Position numbers and translations under genes: made by a program. Shown piece after piece: positions 2,043 to 29,371 of a DNA stretch of 29,371 bases (position 1 is the first letter of the stretch; the number at the start of each line of letters is the position of its first letter). Source of the DNA: a virus (taxonomy: Duplodnaviria > Caudoviricetes); the IMG/VR virus record IMGVR_UViG_3300020185_000190, positions 1 through 29,371 of that record. One strand, written 5' to 3'. Below the pieces are notes generated by a model. That model was not told the DNA's origin. It saw only the letters and a program-made list of their open reading frames with translations, and did not search any database.

Positions 2043-3488
2043 ATGAAAAAATGTACAATCTTAATTAAAGACGAAGTGAATGTGAAATTAGAAGGTCTTG
2101 ATCCTGCTACACGCCGCAAGTGCAGTGATAAACTAAAGTTTTTCTTGCCACATGCATACCATATGCCTGCTTATAAATTAGGACGATGGGATGGTACAGT
2201 ACGTTTCTGTGATGTAGGTGGCAGAACTTATTTAAATTTATTAGATGATCTTTTGCCTATCATTATGAGTTCTGGATATGAGATTGACATTGATGATAGG
2301 CGTGAACATACTACGCTAGAATTTGATACAATCAATGATGAATTTTGGGGTGATACATGTTGGCCCGAAGGACATCCAGCAGAAGGTGAACCTATTCGTC
2401 TTCGTGACTATCAGGTTGAGGTTGTTAATAAGTTTCTAGAATCACCACAAGCATTACAAGAGATTGCAACTGGTGCTGGTAAAACCATTATGACTGCTAC
2501 ACTATCCAAACTTGTAGAGAAATATGGAAGATCAATTGTTATTGTACCGAACAAAGACTTGGTACGGCAGACCGAAGAAGACTATCTAAATTGTGGGTTA
2601 GATGCAGGAGTTTACTTTGGTGATAGGAAAGATATTGGAAAAACCCACACCATCTGTACATGGCAATCCCTCAATTCCTTGCTAAAGAAAACTAAAAAAG
2701 GTGAAGACAACATCATGGACTTTATTGAGGACGTGAGTTGTGTAATTGTAGATGAAGTACATCAAGCAAAGGCGGATGTATTGAAAGATTTGTTAACAAG
2801 TGTATTTGCACGTGTTCCATTACGCTGGGGATTAACAGGGACTATTCCCAAGTCGGATCATGAGTTTGCCACTATAAGAGCCAGTCTAGGAGATATAGTT
2901 AATAGACTAGCAGCAAAAGATTTACAAGATATTGGTGTATTATCGAATTGTCATGTAAACATTGTTCAAACTCAAGAACCTCAGGCATATACAGATTATC
3001 AAAGTGAACTTAAATTTTTATTAGAGGACAAAAAACGACAAGAATATTTAGCCAACTTAATTAAAGAGATATCAAAAACAGGAAATACCCTAGTTTTAAC
3101 TGGGCGTATTAATTCAGGACAAGCATTACAAGAGCTAATTCCAGAAGCAGATTTTGTTCAAGGAGCAATGAAATCTGATGATAGAAAAACAGCATATAAG
3201 GAAATAAATGAAGGTACCAATTCAATCACTATTGCTACTTACGGTGTTGCCGCCGTTGGTATTAACATCCCTCGCATATTCAACATGGTTCTTTTGGAGC
3301 CTGGCAAGTCTTTTGTGCGGGTTATTCAGTCTATCGGTCGTGGCGTCCGTGTGGCAAAAGACAAAGATTTTGTTCAAATCTGGGACATCACAAGTAGATG
3401 TAAATTCTCAAAAAGACACTTGACAGAAAGAAAGAAATTCTATAAAGATGCTGAGTATCCATTCAGCATAGAAAAGGTAAAATACTAA
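2043..3488 (+). CDS. uvsW: SF2 DNA helicase, T4 UvsW-like
   Basis: LRDYQ, ATGAGKT, DEVH, GLTGT and QSIGRGVR motifs; N-terminal WDG motif typical of UvsW-like proteins. Confidence 0.85.
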   Translation: MKKCTILIKDEVNVKLEGLDPATRRKCSDKLKFFLPHAYHMPAYKLGRWDGTVRFCDVGGRTYLNLLDDLLPIIMSSGYEIDIDDRREHTTLEFDTINDEFWGDTCWPEGHPAEGEPIRLRDYQVEVVNKFLESPQALQEIATGAGKTIMTATLSKLVEKYGRSIVIVPNKDLVRQTEEDYLNCGLDAGVYFGDRKDIGKTHTICTWQSLNSLLKKTKKGEDNIMDFIEDVSCVIVDEVHQAKADVLKDLLTSVFARVPLRWGLTGTIPKSDHEFATIRASLGDIVNRLAAKDLQDIGVLSNCHVNIVQTQEPQAYTDYQSELKFLLEDKKRQEYLANLIKEISKTGNTLVLTGRINSGQALQELIPEADFVQGAMKSDDRKTAYKEINEGTNSITIATYGVAAVGINIPRIFNMVLLEPGKSFVRVIQSIGRGVRVAKDKDFVQIWDITSRCKFSKRHLTERKKFYKDAEYPFSIEKVKY

Positions 3489-3988
3489 TGAAAATACTGA
3501 CACCAGAAAATCACTGTTTTGAAATGAACAGTCTTCCAGAAGAAATAGAAGATATAAGATATTGTGTTATGGATGTAACTGATAAGAAAAATCCAGACTT
3601 CTTTTTCATTCCATTAGTATTTATTGAAACATTTAATGCGCCGAGTATTTCAATGACTATTGGCAAATTTAAAATTGAAATGCCACTTGACTGGAATATT
3701 CTAATTGGTCACCGAGAAATTGGTGATTTAGAATTTGTTCCATTAACAAGTATTAATGAACGTAGTTTTGATACAATCTTAACAAATCCATTAAGTGATT
3801 TTATGATGCAATGGGAAGAAATTAAAATCAATAATGTATTTGCAGATGTAAAATGGTTCTTTCCTAAACTAAAGTATGGTCACATTCTTGCAATTCCGCT
3901 TGAGCATGGTGACAAACCAAAGTGTGCGTATTTTGTTAAAGACCTGAACCGCATACCAGATGTATTAAGCAGTTATGATTTCTTTTGA
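3488..3988 (+). CDS. Conserved hypothetical protein coupled to the helicase
   Basis: 166 aa, TAATG overlap. Confidence 0.75.
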   Translation: MKILTPENHCFEMNSLPEEIEDIRYCVMDVTDKKNPDFFFIPLVFIETFNAPSISMTIGKFKIEMPLDWNILIGHREIGDLEFVPLTSINERSFDTILTNPLSDFMMQWEEIKINNVFADVKWFFPKLKYGHILAIPLEHGDKPKCAYFVKDLNRIPDVLSSYDFF

Positions 3989-4199
3989 TACATTACATCG
4001 TGTATTAATTGTTAATTACCAACATACAAAAAATGCGGTTGTATGGTGTGAGCAATCTTTAGAACCAGAAGAATGGAGTGTAGAATATTTTGAAAATAAT
4101 GATTGTTTTTACTTTACATCTAAGACAAAATGTGGTATGTTTATGTTTGTGAATGGTGGTAAATATATTGCGCCACCACGAGGAGTAGAGAATGGCTGA
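3975..4199 (+). CDS. Hypothetical protein
   Basis: 74 aa, overlaps both neighbours. Confidence 0.65.
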   Translation: MISFDTLHRVLIVNYQHTKNAVVWCEQSLEPEEWSVEYFENNDCFYFTSKTKCGMFMFVNGGKYIAPPRGVENG

Positions 4200-4671
4200 T
4201 AAACTTCCATTGAATGATGTTCTGAATGCTATTGATCGGCGTGATTATGATTGGTACTCTAAATTATCAGATGATGATAAAAAGAAGTGGAGTAGTTGGT
4301 TATTCTTACGCTATGCGAGTAGTGTGAAGGGATCTGGAGCAGGTGAAGCATTACTTGCGACAAATGACTTTGTAAATAAGCATTATACCGATTTGTATAA
4401 GCATGAAGAATTGATATGGAAGTTAATGTGCCTAACGGGTTCAGGTAAGAAGAAATACCATGAATGGATTAAACCTCCCACTGCGATTAAAAAGAAAGAT
4501 ACTATTACAGAGTTCTTATCTGAAGTAATGCCACATCTAAAAAAAGATGAAATAGAACTATATCGGTCTATAAATTCAGATGCAGATATAAAACGTCTTG
4601 CAATTGACATGGGAATAGATGATAAATCGATAGATGAAATTTTTGGTAAGAATAAAAGGAAAAAGAAATGA
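4192..4671 (+). CDS. Probable clamp-loader small subunit (T4 gp62-like)
   Basis: Size, context and pattern (LNAI...WLFLRYASS...N...K..HEWIK) resemble the phage clamp-loader A subunit; GGAG RBS. Confidence 0.55.
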   Translation: MADKLPLNDVLNAIDRRDYDWYSKLSDDDKKKWSSWLFLRYASSVKGSGAGEALLATNDFVNKHYTDLYKHEELIWKLMCLTGSGKKKYHEWIKPPTAIKKKDTITEFLSEVMPHLKKDEIELYRSINSDADIKRLAIDMGIDDKSIDEIFGKNKRKKK

Positions 4672-5081
4672 AGTGGTTCCATATTGAAAATAAACAAAAA
4701 TGGGGAATTAGTGAAATACAACATTTTATTAATGAAGAAACCAATACTGGATTGAGAATTGATACCAATTGGAAATGGGGTTCATTTGATATTGGTCATC
4801 ACACACACATTGAAGAAACAAGTGAACCTACAAATGTATACATGAAGTTTGATGAACCAATGGTTAATGCGTTGGATAGTGGCACGGATGAACTTATTTT
4901 TTATAATTTAAAAACGGGCGAAGAGTATGATGCAAGAGATTATCAAGAGTTTATAAATAATTATTATGATGAAGGTATCAACTATTTATTTGACAATGGA
5001 TTTGATGATGGAGAAGATTCTGAATTTTGGATAGAAGGTGGCTTTACTATAGAAGAAACAGAATGCCCTTATGAGTTTTGA
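4668..5081 (+). CDS. Acidic hypothetical protein
   Basis: 137 aa, ATGA overlap. Confidence 0.65.
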   Translation: MKWFHIENKQKWGISEIQHFINEETNTGLRIDTNWKWGSFDIGHHTHIEETSEPTNVYMKFDEPMVNALDSGTDELIFYNLKTGEEYDARDYQEFINNYYDEGINYLFDNGFDDGEDSEFWIEGGFTIEETECPYEF

Positions 5082-5745
5082 ATGTCAATACTGTAAACGT
5101 TCTTTCAAGCGTGAAAAGACTTTATCTGTTCACTTATGTGAACCAAAGCGCCGCTATCTTAATAAGGATGCTAAATATGTTAGACTAGGATATCTTGCAT
5201 ACAATAGATTTTATGCATTGACACAAGGATCTAAAAAAGATAAAACATATGATAACTTTGCATCAAGTAACTATTATACTGGATTTACTAAATTCGGAAG
5301 ATATATATTAGATATTAATGCTATAGATCCAGAAAAGTTTATTGACTTTGTTATTAATAACAGTGTGCATTTAGATAAATGGTGTAGCGACTCTGTATAT
5401 GAGACATATATTAGAGAGTTAAATAAAAAAGAAACTGCAGAACGAGCAATTGAACGTGGTATATTATTAATGCAACAATGGGGAAGAGAACATGATAGAC
5501 CGTTTAATGTATTTTTTAGGGAAGTCAGTAAGCCGCGTCTTATTCATTGGATTAAGTCAGGACGGATTAGCCCTTGGATTATTTTTAATTGCTATAGTTG
5601 CAGTGAGGCAATGGCAAATTTTAATGAACATGAGTTAAATTTAATAAATGAGAATTTAGAACCAACGTTCTGGTCTCGTAAATTCTCAAAACAATCAGAC
5701 GATGTAAAATTTGTTAATAGTATATTAGAAAGAGCAGGATTATGA
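5071..5745 (+). CDS. Zn-finger protein, possibly a gp59-like helicase loader
   Basis: N-terminal CQYCKRSF...HLC; C-terminal PRLIHWIKSGRISP loosely recalls gp59. Confidence 0.5.
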   Translation: MSFECQYCKRSFKREKTLSVHLCEPKRRYLNKDAKYVRLGYLAYNRFYALTQGSKKDKTYDNFASSNYYTGFTKFGRYILDINAIDPEKFIDFVINNSVHLDKWCSDSVYETYIRELNKKETAERAIERGILLMQQWGREHDRPFNVFFREVSKPRLIHWIKSGRISPWIIFNCYSCSEAMANFNEHELNLINENLEPTFWSRKFSKQSDDVKFVNSILERAGL

Positions 5746-5948
5746 GTACTACAAAAGTATTAGGCAAATTAGATGAATGGAAAACTGGAATAATAGAGGA
5801 TCCAGATACAGGTGAGTTAATTATACATTTGCCCGAACACATGCTTGCTACATTGGGATGGAATGAAAATACTGAGTTGGAATGGTATGAAGATTCTGAT
5901 GGAGCAATTGGACTTAGAAAAGTAAAAAATAGTGGGAAAAATATATGA
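5742..5948 (+). CDS. AbrB/SpoVT-like small DNA-binding protein
   Basis: GELIIHLPEHMLATLGWNENTELEW matches the swapped-hairpin pattern. Confidence 0.6.
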   Translation: MSTTKVLGKLDEWKTGIIEDPDTGELIIHLPEHMLATLGWNENTELEWYEDSDGAIGLRKVKNSGKNI

Positions 5949-6442
5949 AACTTATTACATACGATTGGTCAAAAATTAACTCTGCCGTGCAAGATATTGC
6001 AATGGATATGTACAAAGACAACTGGCGTCCAGACTATATTATAGGAATTACACGTGGAGGTCTCGTTCCTGCAGTTATGCTTTCTCATATGACTGAGATA
6101 CCAATGCATACATTATGTGTGCAACTGGCAGCAAATGGACTAGAAGAGAATACCGAAAGTAATTGTTGGATGGCAGAAGATGCATTTGGGTATGAAAAAG
6201 ATCCAAAGAATATCTTAATCTTAGATGATATAAATCGTGGTGGTGATGCGATGGAATGGATTATGAAAGATTGGCAAGCAAGTTGTTTGCCGTCAGACGA
6301 AAAATGGGGACAAATATGGCACAATAATGTTAGATTTGCAGCATTGCTCAGTAGTCCCAATTCAATTGTAGACACTGATTATTGGAGTCAGGAATTTTCA
6401 GATTCTGAAGAACGTTGGGTACAATTTCCATGGGAGACATGA
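5945..6442 (+). CDS. Type I phosphoribosyltransferase (Gpt/Hpt-like)
   Basis: IGITRGGLVPA, PRPP loop ILILDDINRGG, terminal WVQFPWE. Confidence 0.85.
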   Translation: MKLITYDWSKINSAVQDIAMDMYKDNWRPDYIIGITRGGLVPAVMLSHMTEIPMHTLCVQLAANGLEENTESNCWMAEDAFGYEKDPKNILILDDINRGGDAMEWIMKDWQASCLPSDEKWGQIWHNNVRFAALLSSPNSIVDTDYWSQEFSDSEERWVQFPWET

Positions 6443-7213: not shown

Positions 7214-7419
7214 GCGGACAAAGACGTTGGTTAAAAATATGGGCAAGAACAGTTGGTATGCCGATTGGTCTTACCGATGAAGACAAGCCTGAATTTTTAC
7301 CTATTACACAAACAGATGTTCGCCGAGCATTAGCATTCAGAACATTCTGGATTATCTTGCATATTGTCACATGTTGTGCTATAATAGCAGGTAACGGAAA
7401 AACTCTAGGAATTTGGTAA
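7210..7419 (+). CDS. Small membrane protein
   Basis: ATGA overlap at 7210; hydrophobic C-terminal FWIILHIVTCCAII. Confidence 0.65.
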   Translation: MSGQRRWLKIWARTVGMPIGLTDEDKPEFLPITQTDVRRALAFRTFWIILHIVTCCAIIAGNGKTLGIW

Positions 7420-8006
7420 TGAAAATTCAAACTGATATTGATATTGATATTTTGGATAGAAATGCTATTCTGAGCCTAATTAAGCATGTTCCGGCTAGTA
7501 TTAAAAAGAATGGCATCTATACGAAACATAATAGTGGTGTATACGTATCTGCAATACCATATGATCCGGTGAGTAATCTAGCAAGTATTGAATATAAAGA
7601 AGCAGAAGAACGTGGTTACTTTAAATTAGATTTTTTGAATAATAGTTTATATGCCGGAATACATGATGAAGAACATTTATCTATATTGACAAATAGAGAA
7701 CCAATGTGGGAATTATTAGAGTACTCTGAAATTGTTGAACAGTTAGCACACGTACATAGCCATATTGATGTATTACGTGTATTAAAGCCAAGAAGTATTA
7801 TAGAACTTGCAGAAGTACTTGCTATAATTCGGCCTGCAAAAAGATATTTATTGAATAAGAGTGTAGATATTATTAAAGAAAATGTATGGACAAAGCCAGT
7901 AGATAATAGTTACTATTTTAAAAAGGCACATGCAATTGCCTATGCCGTAAGTATTGTTGTGCAACTTAATCTAATTTGCGAACAAGTTGAATCGACCGTC
8001 GTTTAA
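7419..8006 (+). CDS. Miniature DNA polymerase III alpha (DnaE)-like catalytic core
   Basis: Ordered DnaE motifs TDIDID, KHNSGVYV, GYFKLDFL, PRSIIELAEVLAIIRP and YYFKKAHAIAYA in 195 aa; TAATG overlap at the start. Confidence 0.8.
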   Translation: MKIQTDIDIDILDRNAILSLIKHVPASIKKNGIYTKHNSGVYVSAIPYDPVSNLASIEYKEAEERGYFKLDFLNNSLYAGIHDEEHLSILTNREPMWELLEYSEIVEQLAHVHSHIDVLRVLKPRSIIELAEVLAIIRPAKRYLLNKSVDIIKENVWTKPVDNSYYFKKAHAIAYAVSIVVQLNLICEQVESTVV

Positions 8007-8352
8007 TTCTTTTTTGTACAATATTATTTAAACTTGTCTCAGGACCCCACATAATCTGTACGTCTTTTGAGTTCATATTCATTATCCAATTTTTATATGG
8101 TAGAATTTGTGAACCTAAAAATAGATTAATTGGAATCAGTCTATTTGATTCCCACCACCATTGTTCTCCCAATTCAATAAATCCTTTTCTCAGTTCTGGT
8201 GTTGGTATATCTTCCCAGTTGTACAGAGATGTAATTACATTGTCTGTATTAATGAGAATACCAATATATTCTTTATAATCTTTTTTTCCATAGCGAACAC
8301 AAGAGAAAAACGGGTAGTTCTCTTGTATCCATTCAATTTTATCTGTATCCAT
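7966..8352 (-). CDS. Conserved hypothetical protein; the only credible minus-strand gene
   Basis: MDTDKIEWIQENYPFFSC...WWWESNRLIPINLFL; start moved to 8352 because a CATAAATA motif lies just upstream. Confidence 0.75.
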   Translation of the reverse strand: MDTDKIEWIQENYPFFSCVRYGKKDYKEYIGILINTDNVITSLYNWEDIPTPELRKGFIELGEQWWWESNRLIPINLFLGSQILPYKNWIMNMNSKDVQIMWGPETSLNNIVQKRIKRRSIQLVRKLD

Positions 8353-8357
8353 ATTTA

Positions 8358-8397
8358 TATTTATGTCTAATAAAAATTGTCGCTCTAAAGATAAATA
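8358..8397. promoter_or_regulatory. Divergent pair of late-type promoters
   Basis: CATAAATA on - (8365-8358) and GATAAATA on + (8390-8397), each 5 nt before an ATG. Confidence 0.7.
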
Positions 8398-8402
8398 CAA
8401 GT

Positions 8403-10225: not shown

Positions 10226-11227
10226 ATGAATCTACAGGAAGTTATATATTCGAGTCTACCTAGACCTCAGAGGCCTAGCAGTGGTGGCTGGTTATCATTT
10301 AATTGTCCTTGTTGTATAGAAAATGGCGAAGCAAGAAATGATACAAGATTGCGCGGTGGTATTAGAAACGATGTAGATAGTATATCGTATCATTGTTTTA
10401 ATTGTGGATTTACGGCATCACATAAGTTAGGCAGAGTCATTAATAAGAAAATGATTTTGCTAATGCGTAATTTAGGCATCTCTGATTCTGAAATAAAAAG
10501 AATACAATTACAAGCAATTAGAGACAAAGAATTAGCCGACGGTCCAATGGTGTTTGCCAGTAAGAAATCAAGTACCATCATACCTAAATTTAAAGAATGC
10601 GAATTACCAGAGGATAGTGTTTTACTAGATGATATATTACAAAGTGAACATCCAGATAGACGGGCAATTTTAGGTGCTAAATATCTAGTAGACAGAGGAA
10701 TATACGATCACATATCTAATATATATTGGAGTCCACATCCAGTATTCAGAAAACGTATTATTATTCCCTATCTACAAGGTGAACGAATAGTAGGATATAC
10801 TGGCAGAGACTATACTGGTAAAGCAGATTCAAAATATATGATGAAGACACCCAAAGACTTCATCTATAATATTGATGTTATTAAGAGTAGACGTAAGTAT
10901 TTAATAGTAACAGAAGGGGTGTTTGATGCAGCAGCATTAGATGGTGTTGCTATAATGAGTAATGAGGCAAGTAAAGAACAAATAGACTATATTAACTTAT
11001 TTAAAGGTGATATCATATTAAGTCCTGACAGGGATAAGGCTGGCGAAAAATTAATTAAACAGGCTATTGAAAACGGTTGGAGTGTTAGTTTCCCAAGATG
11101 GGAAGATGATATAAAAGATGCTGCTGATGCAGTGAATAAATATGGTAAGTTATATACTCTAAAGAGTATAATTGATAGTAAGATAAGTAATAGTACCAAA
11201 ATTAACGTAAAAATGCGTTTAGGATAA
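10226..11227 (+). CDS. DNA primase (T4 gp61/DnaG-like)
   Basis: Zn ribbon CPCC...YHCFNC; TOPRIM motifs VTEGVFDA and PDRDKAG. Confidence 0.9.
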   Translation: MNLQEVIYSSLPRPQRPSSGGWLSFNCPCCIENGEARNDTRLRGGIRNDVDSISYHCFNCGFTASHKLGRVINKKMILLMRNLGISDSEIKRIQLQAIRDKELADGPMVFASKKSSTIIPKFKECELPEDSVLLDDILQSEHPDRRAILGAKYLVDRGIYDHISNIYWSPHPVFRKRIIIPYLQGERIVGYTGRDYTGKADSKYMMKTPKDFIYNIDVIKSRRKYLIVTEGVFDAAALDGVAIMSNEASKEQIDYINLFKGDIILSPDRDKAGEKLIKQAIENGWSVSFPRWEDDIKDAADAVNKYGKLYTLKSIIDSKISNSTKINVKMRLG

Positions 11228-11245
11228 TATAGGAAATACAAATAC

Positions 11246-11932
11246 ATGGCAAAGAATCCAGTCAAAAAGAAAACAACTAAAAAGAAACCAGAGAAGAAAC
11301 CAGCAGTAGAAACAAAAGTAATTCCATCGCCGAAAGAGCAACCGGCACCACCTCAAATGCAGATGCCGCAGCCTCCGGCGCAACCAAAAAAGCCAGGTGA
11401 AATACTATACGATAACGGCGTTTTATTCATGGATAAGGAATTCAATCAAGAAAATTGTATGCCATTAGTCAAAATGATTATGGAATATAATATGATGCCC
11501 GAAGGCCAAAAACCTGAGGTAATTCATCTTTATATTAATTCTCCCGGTGGCGCAGTAAATAGCGCACTACATCTAATTGATACAATCAAACAAAGTTCAA
11601 TTCCAGTATATACATATGGAATGGGTATGATTGCAAGTTGCGGTGTTCTACTGATGATGGCAGGCGAAAAAGGCCATAGGTATCTAACACAGAATACTAG
11701 TGTAATGTCACATCAATATAGTTGGGGGTCGAAAGGCAAAGAACACGAACTAATGTCAATTGTTAAAGAGTTCGAATTATCAACAGAACGTATGCTTGAC
11801 CATTATAAAAAATGTACAGGCAAAACAGAAAGTTATATTCGTAAAAACTTGCTTCCAGAAAGTGATATGTGGTTAACTCCAGAAGAGGCAATTAAACATG
11901 GAATTGCTGATAAAATTATTCAAACATACTAG
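11246..11932 (+). CDS. clpP: ClpP-family protease subunit with a Lys/Pro-rich N-terminal extension
   Basis: LYINSPGG, catalytic Ser in IASCG, His in MSHQ, DMWLTPEEAIKHGIAD. Confidence 0.9.
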   Translation: MAKNPVKKKTTKKKPEKKPAVETKVIPSPKEQPAPPQMQMPQPPAQPKKPGEILYDNGVLFMDKEFNQENCMPLVKMIMEYNMMPEGQKPEVIHLYINSPGGAVNSALHLIDTIKQSSIPVYTYGMGMIASCGVLLMMAGEKGHRYLTQNTSVMSHQYSWGSKGKEHELMSIVKEFELSTERMLDHYKKCTGKTESYIRKNLLPESDMWLTPEEAIKHGIADKIIQTY

Positions 11933-12004: not shown

Positions 12005-12427
12005 ATGACAGAAGAAACAAATATACCTACATCAGAAGTAAAAGAATCTGGTGAATATGAAAACTTGATGGACCTTGCTGCCCAAAATAAACAGAAAAAA
12101 CTAGAAAATCCTGATGCGTTTGCAAGTTTATTTGATGTTGAAGAAGTAGAAATTAATCCAGACCACTGGACACAACATTGGAAAGAAATGCCTGAATTTG
12201 TACAGGAAGATAATGGACCTTGGAAAACAGTTAGAATTCATTTTCGTAATGAAGAAGACTATGATGAATTTGCAAAATTAACTGGCAATACACATCTTAC
12301 AAAGAAAACAAAAAGTGCATGGTATCCTAAGTTAGAAATTACTAAAAATGCATTACTTCGTTGGATAGAAGATGATGATGATGAAGATACAGCAATCGAT
12401 GATGACAACAATGAAGGCTGGCAATGA
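12005..12427 (+). CDS. Acidic partner protein of the phage glycosyltransferase
   Basis: EMPEFVQED...IHFRNEEDYDEF...TKSAWYP; ATGA-coupled to the glycosyltransferase. Confidence 0.65.
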   Translation: MTEETNIPTSEVKESGEYENLMDLAAQNKQKKLENPDAFASLFDVEEVEINPDHWTQHWKEMPEFVQEDNGPWKTVRIHFRNEEDYDEFAKLTGNTHLTKKTKSAWYPKLEITKNALLRWIEDDDDEDTAIDDDNNEGWQ

Positions 12428-13371
12428 GTAAACGAACTGATCCGAAATATCCAGTATATATTATATCTAAAACTAGACATGAATCCATGTTTACTTCTCG
12501 TTCATTAGCACGTATGGGAATAAAACATTATATTTCTGTAGAACCACAAGATTATGATAATTATGATGCTGCATTAGATGAATTTAATATTCGGCCATAT
12601 GTTACATTGCTAACATTACCTTTCAGTAATCATGGTGATGGACCAGGAAGAGCAAGAAATTGGTGCTGGGATCATTCTATGGAAGTATTGAAAGCAAAAA
12701 GACATTGGGTACTAGATGATAATATTCAAGACTTTTATAGACTACATAATAATCAGCGTATTCGTGTAGAGTCTGGTTTGTTCTTCAAGATTATGGAAGA
12801 CTTTTGTGATAGATATGAAAATGTAAAAATTGCTGGACCACAGTATCGTTTTTTCTGCGCAGCAGATCAATCATATCCTCCATATGTAAAAAACACTCGA
12901 ATATATTCAACACTTTTAATTGAAAATGATTGCAAGTATAGATGGCGTGGCAGATACAATGAGGATACTGATATTTGTCTTCGTGTTCTTAAAGATGGCG
13001 ATTGTACAATACAATTTAATGCATTCTTACAGGGAAAGTGTGCAACTCAAACTGTTAAGGGTGGGAATACAGAAGAATTTTATCATGCTGAATATACGGA
13101 CAATGAAGACTTTCAAAAAACCAAATACAACAGTGATGGAACAATTAATAAATCACAAATGTTAGCAGATATGCATCCGGATGTTGCGAAAGTGGTATGG
13201 AGATATGGAAGATGGCATCATTATGTAGACTACTTGCCATTTAAAAAGAATATGTTAAAACTAAAAGATGGCATTACATTATCAACAAACACAAACAATT
13301 ATGGTCTCAAACTAAAAACATATAATAGTGTTAATGAATTTGAAACTGAACAGAATATTCAAACCAAATAG
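12424..13371 (+). CDS. GREB1-like/TET-associated (TAGT) GT-A glycosyltransferase, probable DNA base hypermodification
   Basis: YPVYIISK.R, GPGRARNWCWDHS, HWVLDDNI, RIYS.LLI, WRGRYNEDTDICLRVLKDG. Confidence 0.75.
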   Translation: MSKRTDPKYPVYIISKTRHESMFTSRSLARMGIKHYISVEPQDYDNYDAALDEFNIRPYVTLLTLPFSNHGDGPGRARNWCWDHSMEVLKAKRHWVLDDNIQDFYRLHNNQRIRVESGLFFKIMEDFCDRYENVKIAGPQYRFFCAADQSYPPYVKNTRIYSTLLIENDCKYRWRGRYNEDTDICLRVLKDGDCTIQFNAFLQGKCATQTVKGGNTEEFYHAEYTDNEDFQKTKYNSDGTINKSQMLADMHPDVAKVVWRYGRWHHYVDYLPFKKNMLKLKDGITLSTNTNNYGLKLKTYNSVNEFETEQNIQTK

Positions 13372-13473: not shown

Positions 13474-13890
13474 ATGAAAAATTTAATTGTTGCAGCAATT
13501 GTGGCACTATTTGCTACTAATGCATATGCAGAAGATACAACAGTAGAAATGTTAAATAATCGTGATGATGGTGCAAAGATGGTGTACTCAGAAGATATCA
13601 CACGTATTGACGTAGGTGATACAATTACTTGGGTACCGACATCAAAAGGTCACAATGTGGAATTTATTGCAGGTCCAGATGGTTGGAAAGCACCACGTAA
13701 ATCAAAACTCAACAAAGAAGTTGAAATTGCATTTGATACCCCAGGCGTCTATGTATATCAGTGTTCACCACACAAGTCGATGGGCATGATTGCTATTGTT
13801 GTTGTAGGTGACGGAGACAATGATGTATCCAAAGCCAAAGTAAAAGGCAAGTCAAAGAAAAAACTAAAGGCATTGTTAGCAGAGTTATAA
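13474..13890 (+). CDS. Pseudoazurin-type blue copper protein with a signal peptide
   Basis: Signal peptide ending AYA; type-1 Cu ligands GHNVEF and CSPHKSMGM; VGDTITW. Confidence 0.9.
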   Translation: MKNLIVAAIVALFATNAYAEDTTVEMLNNRDDGAKMVYSEDITRIDVGDTITWVPTSKGHNVEFIAGPDGWKAPRKSKLNKEVEIAFDTPGVYVYQCSPHKSMGMIAIVVVGDGDNDVSKAKVKGKSKKKLKALLAEL

Positions 13891-13893
13891 GTT

Positions 13894-14301
13894 ATGTTTA
13901 GAAACTTTGTAAACAAAATTCCAGAGTTTTGTATGACTCATTGGCTACTTCGTATTCCACTTATTGTTGTATTTTTTCAGCAAGGAATGAACAAGTGGCC
14001 AATCAATATCGAAGACTCGCCAGTAGAACTTACACTATTAGTTTGGTCGGTTGTTGTACTAGGAGAACTTGGAGCCGCTGCAGGATTATTAGTCGGCGGC
14101 CTATCAGACTATATCAAACGACTAAAAGAGTTTGGTGATGTTATTACACGTTTCAGTGGCATTACTATTGCCAGTATTATGACAGGTGTTATATGGACAG
14201 GCGAACCAGAAAGTTTCTGGGATGTGATCCTATACGACCACTTTCATGTTCTACTATGGGTAGGCGGAATGTATTTTGCTCTAAGAGGAAACAGAACGTA
14301 A
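13894..14301 (+). CDS. DoxX-family membrane protein
   Basis: LLRIPL..VF.QQG..K, GELGAAAGLLVG, TRFSG; four hydrophobic segments. Confidence 0.75.
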   Translation: MFRNFVNKIPEFCMTHWLLRIPLIVVFFQQGMNKWPINIEDSPVELTLLVWSVVVLGELGAAAGLLVGGLSDYIKRLKEFGDVITRFSGITIASIMTGVIWTGEPESFWDVILYDHFHVLLWVGGMYFALRGNRT

Positions 14302-15424: not shown

Positions 15425-16291
15425 ATGACCTATACAGTTTATAATCAAGATTGCACTAGTGGCATCAGTGAACATATAGAAGATGGAACAGTAGATTTGA
15501 TATTTACTGATCCTCCGTATGGTATTGAGGGTGATAAACTTGACACACATTATAATCGTGATGAAGGCAACGTAGTTCCAGGTTATGTAGAAGTTCCATT
15601 AGAAACATATGGTGAATTTTCTAAGCAATGGATCACAGAATGTGCAAGAGTTTTGCGACCGGGCGGTAGTATGTATATTGTCAGTGGTTATACAAATTTG
15701 CATCATATACTTAATGCATTGCACTCAACAGACTTAAAAGAAATTAATCATATTATTGCACAATATAGTTTTGGTGTATCAACAAAAAACAAATTTGTAA
15801 GTAGTCACTATCATGTTTTGTTTTGGTCAAAGCCAGAAACAAGCAAGCAAAAGCGTACATTTAATACCAATGCTTATTACACTGATAGTAAAGATAGTTA
15901 TCATGACCGATTGACAGTACAGACAATGCCGCGTAGTCATAAACCTGGACAAATTAAAAACAAGAACCAACTGAATGAAGATTGGATTGAGAAGTTTATA
16001 CTATATAGTAGTAATCGTGGTGATGTAGTAATGGATCCATTTTGTGGTGGCTTTACTACGCCTAGAACTGCATTGCGATATGGTAGAAAATTTGTTGGAT
16101 TTGAAATGAATAAAAACGCATATGATGCTTTCTTACCAACACTTGATGAAGTAGAAGTATTACCTGACCCGGATCCTATTTCGCCATCTGCAGGAGAACT
16201 GGCAAAACGAGAAAAGCAGCGCGAAGGATGGAAGAGAGATAGATTACGCAAGAAAGAAGAAAACAATTTAAATCCAGCACTGTTTGATTAA
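15425..16291 (+). CDS. Beta-class N6-A/N4-C DNA methyltransferase
   Basis: VDLIFTDPPY precedes VMDPFCGGFTT and GRKFVGFE; AAGGAG RBS. Confidence 0.9.
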   Translation: MTYTVYNQDCTSGISEHIEDGTVDLIFTDPPYGIEGDKLDTHYNRDEGNVVPGYVEVPLETYGEFSKQWITECARVLRPGGSMYIVSGYTNLHHILNALHSTDLKEINHIIAQYSFGVSTKNKFVSSHYHVLFWSKPETSKQKRTFNTNAYYTDSKDSYHDRLTVQTMPRSHKPGQIKNKNQLNEDWIEKFILYSSNRGDVVMDPFCGGFTTPRTALRYGRKFVGFEMNKNAYDAFLPTLDEVEVLPDPDPISPSAGELAKREKQREGWKRDRLRKKEENNLNPALFD

Positions 16292-16331: not shown

Positions 16332-17750
16332 ATGTCAGAAGTAAAAAATTATAGCCCAGACTTACAGAAACTATTCATTCAATTCATGGTAACTAATCCT
16401 GAACTATATACTAGAATCAGAGGGATTATCAAGCCTGAATATTTCGACCGCAGTGTTCGTCCTGTGGTCAAACAACTTATTGATTATAGTGAAGATTATT
16501 CTACACTGCCAGACACTGCAATTATTAAGGCAGAAACGGGGCAAGACATTGAGAAGTTGGACAACATAACCCAGCATGAAGAATGGTTTGTGGATGAGTT
16601 TGAGACATTTTGCCGTCACAAGGCTATTGAGAAGGCTATTATCGATAGCACAGACTTACTTGAGACTGGCAAGTACGGTGAAGTAGAACTTAGAATCAAA
16701 GAGGCCGTTCAAATTGGACTGGCACGTAGTTTAGGAACAGATTATTTTGCTGATCCTAGAGGTGTGCTTGAACGGATGAAAGACAACAATGGTCAGATTA
16801 CGACTGGTTGGAAATCTCTTGATGATAAGTTATATGGTGGCATTAATCGTGGGGAGATTACGATTTTTGCAGGCGGCTCCGGGGCAGGTAAATCCCTTTT
16901 TATGCAAAATATGAGCCTGAATTGGGCGGAGGCTGGGTTGAATTGTGTCTACTTCACATTGGAGTTATCCGAGGAACTTTCAAGTATGCGTATGTATGCA
17001 ATGCAGACGGACCGCAGTACTAGACGCATTTTTAAAGACTTAGATGATGTTGAACTACAAGTTAAAGCGAAAGGCAAACAGTCCGGTATGCTACGTATAA
17101 AGTATCTTCCGAGTGGTTCAACAATCAATGATCTACGGTCTTACTTGAAAGAACTTCAGATACAAACTGGCAAAACAGTAGATTGCATGTGTATTGACTA
17201 TCTAGATTTGTTAATGCCCGCAACTAAAAAAGTCCAAGCAGGTGATACCTTTACCAAAGACAAGTATGTCACAGAAGAAATGCGCAACTTTTCTATGGAA
17301 ACGCAAACTGTTACGGTGACTGCATCACAATTAAATCGTAGTGCAGTTGAAGAAATTGAATTTGATCATTCTCATATTGCGGGTGGCATTAGTAAAATTC
17401 AAACTGCTGATAATGTAATTGGTATTTTCACATCGAATGCCATGCGTGAACGTGGACAATATCAATTGCAACTATTAAAAACACGTTCATCTTCTGGAGT
17501 TGGTAGCAAAGTAAGTTTATTATTTGATAGAGATAGTCTACGTATATCAGATGATCCAGATCAGGATAGTACTGGTGCAGGTACACCGAGCAATGGTGGC
17601 GGTACCACCAGTGTTGTTGATCAACTTAGAAAGAAAACAACTCTAAATAAATCAGATGATGATACTCCTGTATTTGAAAAAACAAAGGCAGCAAGTTCAC
17701 TCCGAGCAATGTTGAAAACTAAAAGCAGGTCGGCTTTTGACGAAACTTGA
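16332..17750 (+). CDS. Replicative DnaB-like helicase (T4 gp41-like)
   Basis: TGWKSLD, AGGSGAGKS, FTLELSE, IDYLDL, TASQLNR, LKTR. Confidence 0.92.
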   Translation: MSEVKNYSPDLQKLFIQFMVTNPELYTRIRGIIKPEYFDRSVRPVVKQLIDYSEDYSTLPDTAIIKAETGQDIEKLDNITQHEEWFVDEFETFCRHKAIEKAIIDSTDLLETGKYGEVELRIKEAVQIGLARSLGTDYFADPRGVLERMKDNNGQITTGWKSLDDKLYGGINRGEITIFAGGSGAGKSLFMQNMSLNWAEAGLNCVYFTLELSEELSSMRMYAMQTDRSTRRIFKDLDDVELQVKAKGKQSGMLRIKYLPSGSTINDLRSYLKELQIQTGKTVDCMCIDYLDLLMPATKKVQAGDTFTKDKYVTEEMRNFSMETQTVTVTASQLNRSAVEEIEFDHSHIAGGISKIQTADNVIGIFTSNAMRERGQYQLQLLKTRSSSGVGSKVSLLFDRDSLRISDDPDQDSTGAGTPSNGGGTTSVVDQLRKKTTLNKSDDDTPVFEKTKAASSLRAMLKTKSRSAFDET

Positions 17751-27379: not shown

Positions 27380-27395
27380 CTAGGAGTTACACGAA

Positions 27396-29371
27396 ATGGC
27401 TATAACAAACGTAAAAATTCTACTAAGACGCGGTTTACGTGAAGAAATCGGCGTTGACACATTTGAAACTGGCGAAATGGGATTCACTATAGATACGAAT
27501 CAGTTATTCGTTGGTATAGATGATGCGATTGACGAAGTTCAATTTGGTGCATTCGAAAATGCACATGCAGTTATTCAGTCTTGGTTGGATAGTGCAAATA
27601 ATCCAGAACCTGGACTAACAGTTGACGAAGACTTAGTAATTCGTAATGTCAACGATGTTGATGCTTTAATTCGGGCAATGCATTTCTATCTACATAATGT
27701 AGAATGGAAAGGAAATGTAAATTTATCGCCAGGTGAAACAATTTATCTAAAAAGATTTTTATATGATGACCACAGAATTCCATCATCGGAAATTGATCCT
27801 GGTAAAACTTATATCATAAAAGAATTAGGCAACACTGATTACTATATAATGGGCGCAAGCGATAATGTAGTAAATGTAAAATTTAAATCTAATGCAGTTG
27901 GACCATTGAACGGTAATGGCGAAGTACTAGAAGTAATCGGAGTTGAAGATTACACACAAGGAATTGTCACATCGTCATATTATGACTCAGTAAGAGATGT
28001 AACTGTCACATCACTATATATGAGACATGGTGCAGCAATGCCATCACAGGATATTGCTCCAAATAACAACTCAACTTATATGAATAAATCTAACTTCGGA
28101 CTATTTAAGTGGAATAATACTGAGTGGATACCAGAAGTTATTGATTATGTTCTTAATTATGATCCTCTAAATGCAAGTATAGATTATACCACAAATTCTC
28201 CAGTCAGTAGTCTTGGATTGGAAGGTGATGTTGCAGTAATTACCGGTCCAGATAGAGTTACATATTGGTATAAAAGCAACATAACGTGGCAACTTTTAGG
28301 CACCGGTGATCAAGATTTTCAATTTAGAACAACTGATGTAGATAATCAAAATATATCAGATACTCCAATTGCAATTCCAAATGTACGCAGTGATGGAACT
28401 CCTCTTGTAAATAATGATTACTACATAGATTATAGTCGAGATATACAGAATGGATTAGAATTAATTCTTTCTGAATTTGATATTTTATCTCCTAGAATTG
28501 CAGATGTTCCAGTAAATAGTATTCTTTCGTCAATGACATTAGAAGAAGTTAACAACTATTATAGATATGATGATACCACATTACCTGTGTATGCATCTGA
28601 TGCATTGGCATCACTGAACTTATTAGAGTATCAATTAGTATGGGCATTACCAGATTTAACATTAAATAATGCCACTATCTTTATTAAGGAACGTGATCAA
28701 GCAGGAACGAATGATTATACCTTATATAACTATAATAATATGCATAGAGAATATTACTATACTAAATCATTAATTGGTAGTCCATCAGATGTAGATTTTG
28801 CTGATACCGTAAATGTTGAATTTATAGACGTACCTGAATTTGAAGCACCATATTATGCACGATCTCGCCGAAATGTTGAAGTTCTAACAGAAAATACGTA
28901 TAATCAATTATTTGCAGACCAGCATCTATCATCACATTCACATCATAGTGGTAAACGTTCTAGTTTATTCAAAAAACTTTATTCAATTGAACATGATACT
29001 TTTTTAAGTTATCATTTTGACAGTTGTAGCACATTTTTTATTGACTATTCATTAAAACAAAAAAGTATTAGTGCAGGAAATCTATTCTTGCGAACTGGTA
29101 CCATAAAAGTAATAAATGGTTATCCACATGGTGTAAATCAAGTTAAGTTAACAGATGAAAGTACAGAATTATGGCAGGATCTTAATACAGATGGTATAGC
29201 AGAGATGTATCCTAACCCATTGTATCCTGAACCGCCAGCGGTACCTGCGCCACCAGTGGCACCGGAAGTAGAATTTTCTAATATTCAATTTGATGTAAAA
29301 CGTGAAGATATAATACGTGTTACAAATCAAACAGAGTTAGCAATTAATAATTGGTTTGAAACGCCACTGAA
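27396..29371 (+). CDS. Large tail-fibre/virion structural protein, truncated by the window end and absent from the ORF track
   Basis: MAITNVKILLRRG...GEMGFTIDTNQLFVG resembles the Mtd/hyaluronidase-type fibre N-terminal motif; AGGAG RBS; same frame reads open at the segments checked and at the window end. Confidence 0.75.
   Translation, partial: MAITNVKILLRRGLREEIGVDTFETGEMGFTIDTNQLFVGIDDAIDEVQFGAFENAHAVIQSWLDSANNPEPGLTVDEDLVIRNVNDVDALIRAMHFYLHNVEWKGNVNLSPGETIYLKRFLYDDHRIPSSEIDPGKTYIIKELGNTDYYIMGASDNVVNVKFKSNAVGPLNGNGEVLEVIGVEDYTQGIVTSSYYDSVRDVTVTSLYMRHGAAMPSQDIAPNNNSTYMNKSNFGLFKWNNTEWIPEVIDYVLNYDPLNASIDYTTNSPVSSLGLEGDVAVITGPDRVTYWYKSNITWQLLGTGDQDFQFRTTDVDNQNISDTPIAIPNVRSDGTPLVNNDYYIDYSRDIQNGLELILSEFDILSPRIADVPVNSILSSMTLEEVNNYYRYDDTTLPVYASDALASLNLLEYQLVWALPDLTLNNATIFIKERDQAGTNDYTLYNYNNMHREYYYTKSLIGSPSDVDFADTVNVEFIDVPEFEAPYYARSRRNVEVLTENTYNQLFADQHLSSHSHHSGKRSSLFKKLYSIEHDTFLSYHFDSCSTFFIDYSLKQKSISAGNLFLRTGTIKVINGYPHGVNQVKLTDESTELWQDLNTDGIAEMYPNPLYPEPPAVPAPPVAPEVEFSNIQFDVKREDIIRVTNQTELAINNWFETPL

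Follow-up and report, generated by a model that had tools for sequence, protein, structure and literature searches.

Can a protein of 195 residues that carries the motifs of DNA polymerase III alpha (DnaE) be a polymerase by itself, is it one part of a divided enzyme, or is it what remains of a longer gene? The question is raised by an open reading frame at 7419..8006 on the + strand of the window, by which we mean the whole stretch of 29,371 nucleotides analysed here. Below we report that this gene is the C-terminal chain (195 aa; metal- and template-binding; assigned by phrog_11778 and by fold match) of the split minimal DNA polymerase III alpha of Iyer et al. 2021, an arrangement known since that year. 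We then present the evidence on its partner, on natural fusions of the two chains, and on what the pair may do.

An intact gene under purifying selection

The reading frame has an ATG start and zero internal stops. A preliminary description of this DNA had called the gene intact and coupled to its neighbours. Its start shares TAATG with the stop of the upstream gene and its last 41 nt are shared with the convergent gene at 7966-8400. As a single sequence, the protein gives zero matches in Pfam and nothing significant in a search of PDB sequences; it matches phrog_11778, labelled DNA polymerase, with an E value of 1.7e-67. Overall, a word-based homolog search gave 7,872 matches among 8,000 candidates scored, and 79 of 80 viral loci hold an intact ORF of 184-198 aa with all the motifs. 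Against six relatives at 87-89% identity, dN/dS is 0.07-0.12, and purifying selection acts on the gene; the comparison with the near-identical L010 gives three non-synonymous changes and one synonymous, numbers too small to weigh. The gene is not a degenerate remnant of a longer one. Three longer matches appeared among 1,344 candidates, each a partial match with unrelated sequence attached and probably an assembly chimera; a full-length DnaE was not among them, which we count as weak evidence.

Marine metatranscriptome contigs (two runs of one study) span most of the gene; these contigs, which give neither strand nor level and may be DNA, are only a weak sign of expression. A promoter scan stayed at chance level, with 11 sites against 9.2 +/- 2.9. 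Among the relatives, a -10-like box lies 4-8 nt 5' of the C-chain ATG in eight of 43 distinct upstream regions (L025, L027, L029, L031, L037, L042, L046 and L063), by a loose pattern counted without a chance control, and suggests that the C-chain mRNA may be leaderless in some relatives; the window has the TAATG overlap instead.

Motifs and fold of a family-C palm

The preliminary description had placed the DnaE motifs in the correct order with all three catalytic Asp positions, and our alignments agree on both. D6-x-D8-x-D10 (7434..7448, +) corresponds to D401/D403/D405 of E. coli DnaE; of the 89 homologs selected by length, 87 keep D6 and D8, and the alignment of the fusions, described below, runs across the junction. 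The H37..G40 strand (7527..7544, +), equivalent to E. coli H511-AGG, follows a 31-aa spacer that stands in the place of the thumb (H37 in 86 of 89). K69-x-D71 (7623..7631, +), aligned to E. coli 553-555, represents K553/D555, each residue being present in 89 of 89 and D71 being the third catalytic Asp, and in R138-P139-x-K141-R142 (7830..7844, +) the first two residues are R639/P640, again 89 of 89 each. Finally, the helix Y165..K168-K169-A170-H171..Y175 (7911..7943, +) places K169/H171/Y175 on K758/H760/Y764, with H171, the steric-gate H760, in 85 of 89. The roles of D401, D403 and D555 as the three catalytic Asp of the family-C palm and of H760 as steric gate are those given in passages of PMC8485763. 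The 89 homologs are those of 175-225 aa out of the best 150 of 418 representatives; the D6/D8 counts come from this set unfiltered, alignment A1 being partly filtered for the first motif, and in the two homologs without D6/D8 the query match begins only at residue 55 or 65. The Asp residues, K69 and R138 are near-invariant even in homologs at 31-35% identity. In a wider alignment of 139 rows, K141 is a conserved Lys specific to the mini family (130 rows), and K or R occupies position 168 in 138 rows and position 169 in 136.

A homolog profile matches E. coli DnaE with 25.7 bits (E 4.2e-10), a score reached in 0 of 500 shuffles, the best of which gave 2.5 bits, and against PDB sequences all nine of its matches are DnaE (best E 1.6e-4). 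The AlphaFold model of the chain, built with 139 sequences, has a pLDDT of 93.6 and a pTM of 0.85. Both this model and that of a fusion were compared with known folds by VIA-align. For the 195-aa model, the top seven of 48,161 chains are all family-C polymerases (Z 9.8-6.1, 186-192 residues aligned), and the first unrelated chain has Z 4.0. The best match is PolC 3f2b (Z 9.8, rmsd 3.7, 192 residues aligned); E. coli 5m1s follows with Z 7.9 over 398-781, and the alignment overall corresponds to E. coli DnaE residues 398-784. The Z values are modest, yet they span the whole chain and concur with the sequence evidence. In the structure prediction that the preliminary description proposed, the fold agrees with the DnaE palm and matches only family-C polymerases. 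Of the findings it had named as refuting, full-length homologs, catalytic Asp residues that are not conserved or a fold other than a palm, none is seen.

Parts missing from the chain

The chain begins near E. coli 398, right at the first catalytic Asp, with only five residues ahead of D6; it does not contain the palm's front half (the GRGS nucleotide-binding half, E. coli ~280-393). At the other side it ends near E. coli 784, without the distal fingers, HhH, OB and C-terminal region. Between the motifs, the spacer from DxD to H-x-x-G has a median of 31 aa against 110 in E. coli, the thumb being gone, and the spacer from RP to KxH of the steric-gate helix has 31 against 119, the YQEQ motif and the R709/R710 helix being gone; neither of the latter two is found in any of the 139 aligned rows. 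The preliminary description had spoken of internal miniaturisation rather than simple truncation; the two shortened spacers bear out the miniaturisation, but both ends are also cut.

A complete palm in one chain is not present in the 195-aa protein and occurs only in the pair or in the fusions, and full fingers and a duplex-binding domain are not present in the chain either. Because the thumb and duplex-binding domains are part of the core that defines family C in passages of PMC8373059, the 195-aa chain, though it would work in the manner of a family-C polymerase, falls short of full membership of that family. The family PF17657 matches 63 of 139 members, weakly, with E up to 0.1. Nothing points to a split-intein DnaE. 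The 25 Pfam families listed for the 139 members include no intein, and there are no intein halves at the break: only five residues precede D6, and the N chain runs no further than its last palm motif. We searched five records for further pieces, as had been suggested for PHP and OB domains: the PHP and HhH searches each gave 0 of 5, and no third Pol III piece was found in the five records of each search (whole-DnaE, finger, PHP, HhH), OB-fold and clamp motif being covered by the whole-DnaE search only.

The N-terminal partner on a distant gene

Positions ~18-101 of PF07733 are matched by a distant gene of 170-185 aa in five of the nine records searched, namely Atu_ph07, RaK2, Phosso, the complete 342-kb contig G003 and the 146-kb contig G001. 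The four records in which this partner is missing are all fragments, the 29-kb window among them, and all four complete genomes searched carry the N-chain gene. The contig G001 shares 99.85% identity with the window across 18,003 bases, and holds the two halves at 34,816-35,364 (N, 182 aa, with the GRGS loop) and 125,163-125,747 (C), about 90 kb apart. In alignment, the N chain covers E. coli 320-392 and ends where the 195-aa chain begins. Its GRGS loop is invariant; the position of R390 is Glu, invariant in the 49 N chains aligned, and that of R396 falls at the break between the chains. Residues 1-86 of the N chain (L095 4001-4260) have no sequence match to DnaE; this front may be a PHP remnant, as an untrimmed fold match places its residues, with low confidence, in the PHP region.

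Within the phage collection, 96 records have the C half and 103 the N half. The counts for both halves are equal in Escherichia (34), Pseudomonas (11), Salmonella (8), Erwinia (8), Xanthomonas (4) and Yersinia (4), and in Klebsiella they are 11 for C and 10 for N; these are genus tallies among the matches listed, not matched record by record. The excess of N halves includes weak matches, for example a Chryseobacterium phage gene annotated Pol III alpha. Concerning the surroundings of the N chain, a 120-160-aa gene of no named family and then a gene that we take to be GroES-like lie 3' of it in all five genomes viewed (L095 4001-5384; L005, L006, L007 and L089), and its neighbours are not replication genes. 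We regard it as very probable that the 195-aa protein is the C half of an obligate pair; among the possibilities that the preliminary description had listed, one subunit of a split enzyme is the one that has proved right, the GRGS half lying on a second gene.

Natural fusions of the two chains

The 375-aa protein P0187 has the N chain joined in order to the C chain, and as a query it finds two further clusters, giving five fusions in total (P0187, P0276, P0277, P0291 and P0292), of 375-376 aa and 75-97% identical. They come from ENA and Logan assemblies, on contigs of up to 33 kb, an origin that speaks against assembly chimeras; no gene context for them was found in the viral or metagenome contigs. 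All align to E. coli 319-418 in one continuous stretch across the junction. A quick tree groups the five in a single clade (support 100) that falls within the unfused C chains (supports 95 and 98), so the fused state is probably derived from the split one. This tree has 61 rows, about half of the representatives, omits RaK2 and is rooted at the midpoint.

The fusion model is of moderate quality, having a pLDDT of 73.2 and a pTM of 0.69, with residues 217-242 under 50. It matches 5lew with Z 19.2, the best Z of the C half alone being 9.8, and 5m1s with Z 15.4 (rmsd 3.2 over 255 residues, E. coli 280-773). Other Pol-beta-type nucleotidyltransferases give weak matches across the junction (Z 2.6-3.8) to the fusion model only, not to the C half. 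As modelled, the fusion restores the full palm. Since its DnaE likeness may in part be a learned likeness to solved structures, the existence of the fusions is stronger evidence than the model. These natural fusions back the pairing inferred in 2021 and offer a ready single-chain construct for assay.

Comparison with known systems

In section 3.4.1 of Iyer et al. 2021 (PMC7824862), a minimal Pol III alpha of group 2.2 jumbo phages is described as split into an N and a C protein on distant genes, the N-terminal protein binding NTP and the C-terminal one Mg2+ and template, beside a family-B polymerase. The system described here shares the minimal catalytic module without other Pol III domains and, as seen in G001 at ~90 kb, the N protein on a distant gene. 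Orthologs at 38-52% identity are found in Atu_ph07, RaK2, GAP32, PA5oct and Phosso, the first of which is named as a group 2.2 phage in that paper. Set against the family as described, the window gene is a marine uncultured member, and neither single-chain fusions nor sub-jumbo members such as Slickus01 are mentioned in the main text of PMC7824862, of which the supplement may list fusions. What is added here is the natural fusions, both halves in a 142-kb phage, and the list of losses (thumb, YQEQ, R709/R710 helix, HhH, PHP).

With DnaE and PolC the mini enzyme shares the Pol-beta-type palm, the three Asp, the K553 equivalent and the steric-gate helix, with the GRGS loop on the partner, and the two halves together match their fold over E. 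coli 280-784. It differs from DnaE in having ~370 aa in two chains against 1160, in lacking the internal and distal parts named above, and in having no recognisable PHP. A functional analogy may be drawn with African swine fever virus Pol X, likewise a viral Pol-beta-fold enzyme reduced to catalytic and fingers parts, for which passages of PMC11646218 give a repair role beside the main replicase; unlike mini Pol III, it belongs to the X family and is a single chain. No bench study of mini Pol III appeared in the literature searched, whose coverage leaves out most subscription journals, and passages of the PA5oct paper (PMC7318152) and of PMC12753301 hold nothing on the 195-aa gene.

Distribution and gene neighbourhood

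The named matches of the C chain are jumbo phages of the RaK2, GAP32, PA5oct and Atu_ph07 kind. Both halves also occur in a non-jumbo phage of 142 kb, the Alishewanella phage Slickus01 (141,644 bp; L178/OQ508957.1), at 68346-68957 and 79796-80308, 11 kb apart and annotated hypothetical; its family-B polymerase is split over two genes (2558-5196). The search for a family-B polymerase that had been proposed finds one in all five complete genomes tested, including G003 (68% identity), and it is not seen on G001 (40% complete) or G004, both fragments.

The C gene lies in a block with a UvsW-like helicase, three unnamed genes, a convergent unnamed gene, a virion gene, a primase and a DnaB helicase. 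In the window, the UvsW-like helicase is at 2043-3488 (+; 66 of 84 loci), followed by genes of 166 aa at 3488-3988 (+; 67), of 159 aa at 4192-4671 (+; 76) and of 224 aa with a C2H2 finger at its start at 5071-5745 (+; 77), these counts coming from loci of which many are cut by contig ends. The convergent gene at 7966..8400 (-; phrog_11637) is conserved in 82 of 84 loci, and a DnaG-type (Toprim) primase (10226..11227, +) and a DnaB-like replicative helicase (16332..17750, +) stand near the C gene in 64 and 59 of 84. The 159-, 224- and 166-aa neighbours have no meaningful PDB match except for the C2H2 finger, and may resemble T4 clamp-loader or helicase-loader parts. Together with the convergent gene, these three make four conserved unnamed neighbours (3488-3988, 4192-4671, 5071-5745 and 7966-8400) that are candidate replisome partners.

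Some other genes of the window may be recorded here. Between the primase and the helicase lie a gene of the TET-associated glycosyltransferase family (12005-13371, +; PF20691, E 3e-43) and an N6/N4 DNA methyltransferase (15425-16291, +), which by their families suggest DNA modification. Host-type cargo is found at 11246-11932, 13474-13890, 13894-14301 and 5945-6442 (all +), comprising a ClpP protease, a plastocyanin/azurin-like copper protein, a weak DoxX-like membrane protein and a phosphoribosyltransferase. The last 2 kb (27380-29371) have no + strand ORF of 50 aa or more.

Proposed role and alternatives

We lean towards the reading that the split mini Pol III is a short-patch templated DNA polymerase, distributive in action, at primers or gaps beside the family-B replicase. 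The observations behind it are the homology, the conserved motifs, the partner gene, the fusions, the loss of domains and the presence of a family-B polymerase in complete relatives. The N and C chains would associate without splicing into one palm with one active site, to which the N chain would bring the GRGS loop (the R362/G363/S364 equivalents) for the dNTP triphosphate, and the C chain the three Asp for two Mg2+ and K69 for the primer end. The choice of dNTP is predicted because the C chain carries the three Asp and the steric-gate His171, which would select for the deoxy form. The conserved K141, K168 and K169 may replace the lost R709/R710. The enzyme would fill in a few nucleotides, either to elongate primers made by the primase or to close gaps at forks or recombination intermediates, after which the family-B enzyme or a ligase would take over the short tract; it is predicted to be distributive because it has no thumb, duplex-binding, clamp-binding or proofreading part. 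We give primer extension and gap filling about equal weight; the data here do not separate the former from repair filling. Several points tell against this reading. None of the 139 rows has YQEQ or the R709/R710 helix, and the reported dATP contacts are partly lost; R390 is replaced by Glu in the N chains, which speaks against full activity; templated synthesis by an enzyme without thumb and duplex domain may be poor; the neighbours of the N gene are not replication genes; and the family-B gene is not seen on G001 or G004. The contact roles of R362/G363/S364, R390, R396 and R709/R710 are those given in one passage of a docking paper (PMC4374717). A possible special form, which we put forward tentatively, is a primer-maturing relay, in which mini Pol III would add a few deoxynucleotides to the RNA primers made by the DnaG-type primase and then pass them to the family-B replicase.

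Among the alternatives, it is rather unlikely that the chains pair as a nucleotidyltransferase that is template-independent or acts on something other than DNA, in end tailing, in nucleotidylation of protein or RNA, or in making a small anti-defence nucleotide. The loss of thumb, duplex-binding region, YQEQ and R709/R710 with the metal ligands retained would suit such an enzyme, and the Pol-beta fold houses many of them, as the weak matches of the fusion model (Z 2.6-3.8) recall; however, the steric-gate His (85 of 89), the next Tyr and K69 are retained, the gene lies inside a helicase-primase block, and every strong fold match is a family-C DNA polymerase. The base modification role raised in the preliminary description gained no support.

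We think it improbable that the pair has little or no catalytic activity and serves as a binder of DNA ends, nucleotides or pyrophosphate, or as a decoy against the host Pol III replisome. In favour of this reading, several residues that contact the triphosphate are gone and the phages have a family-B replicase besides, but the three Asp, K69 and R138 stay near-invariant down to 31-35% identity, and for a decoy there is little to mimic, the PHP and HhH host-partner domains not having been found.

That the 195-aa protein is by itself a self-sufficient minimal polymerase, the leading reading of the preliminary description, is now hard to maintain: the chain has the steric gate as well as all three catalytic Asp, and is predicted to fold confidently alone (pLDDT 93.6), but the GRGS half of the palm is missing from it and encoded by a distant gene, found in each complete genome searched, the genus counts of C and N match, and the halves are fused in order in one clade. 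Equally doubtful is a larger multi-piece Pol III, a processive lagging-strand replicase drawing its thumb and remaining fingers from divergent phage proteins, for which the three upstream genes and the convergent one, unnamed and as position-conserved as the primase, might speak, but against which stand deletions that are internal and bridged by short linkers, the lack of a third piece in the five records per search, and neighbour profiles without a polymerase match in PDB.

If the short-patch polymerase that we favour is active, it would show which parts a family-C polymerase needs at the least, and that B-family and C-family enzymes divide the labour in one viral replisome. The relay, if true, would be Pol-alpha-like, and the thumbless family-C core of ~370 aa would be the smallest working bacterial replicase fold. 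Strong selection maintains the gene across a large group of phages, cultured phages of E. coli and Pseudomonas among them.
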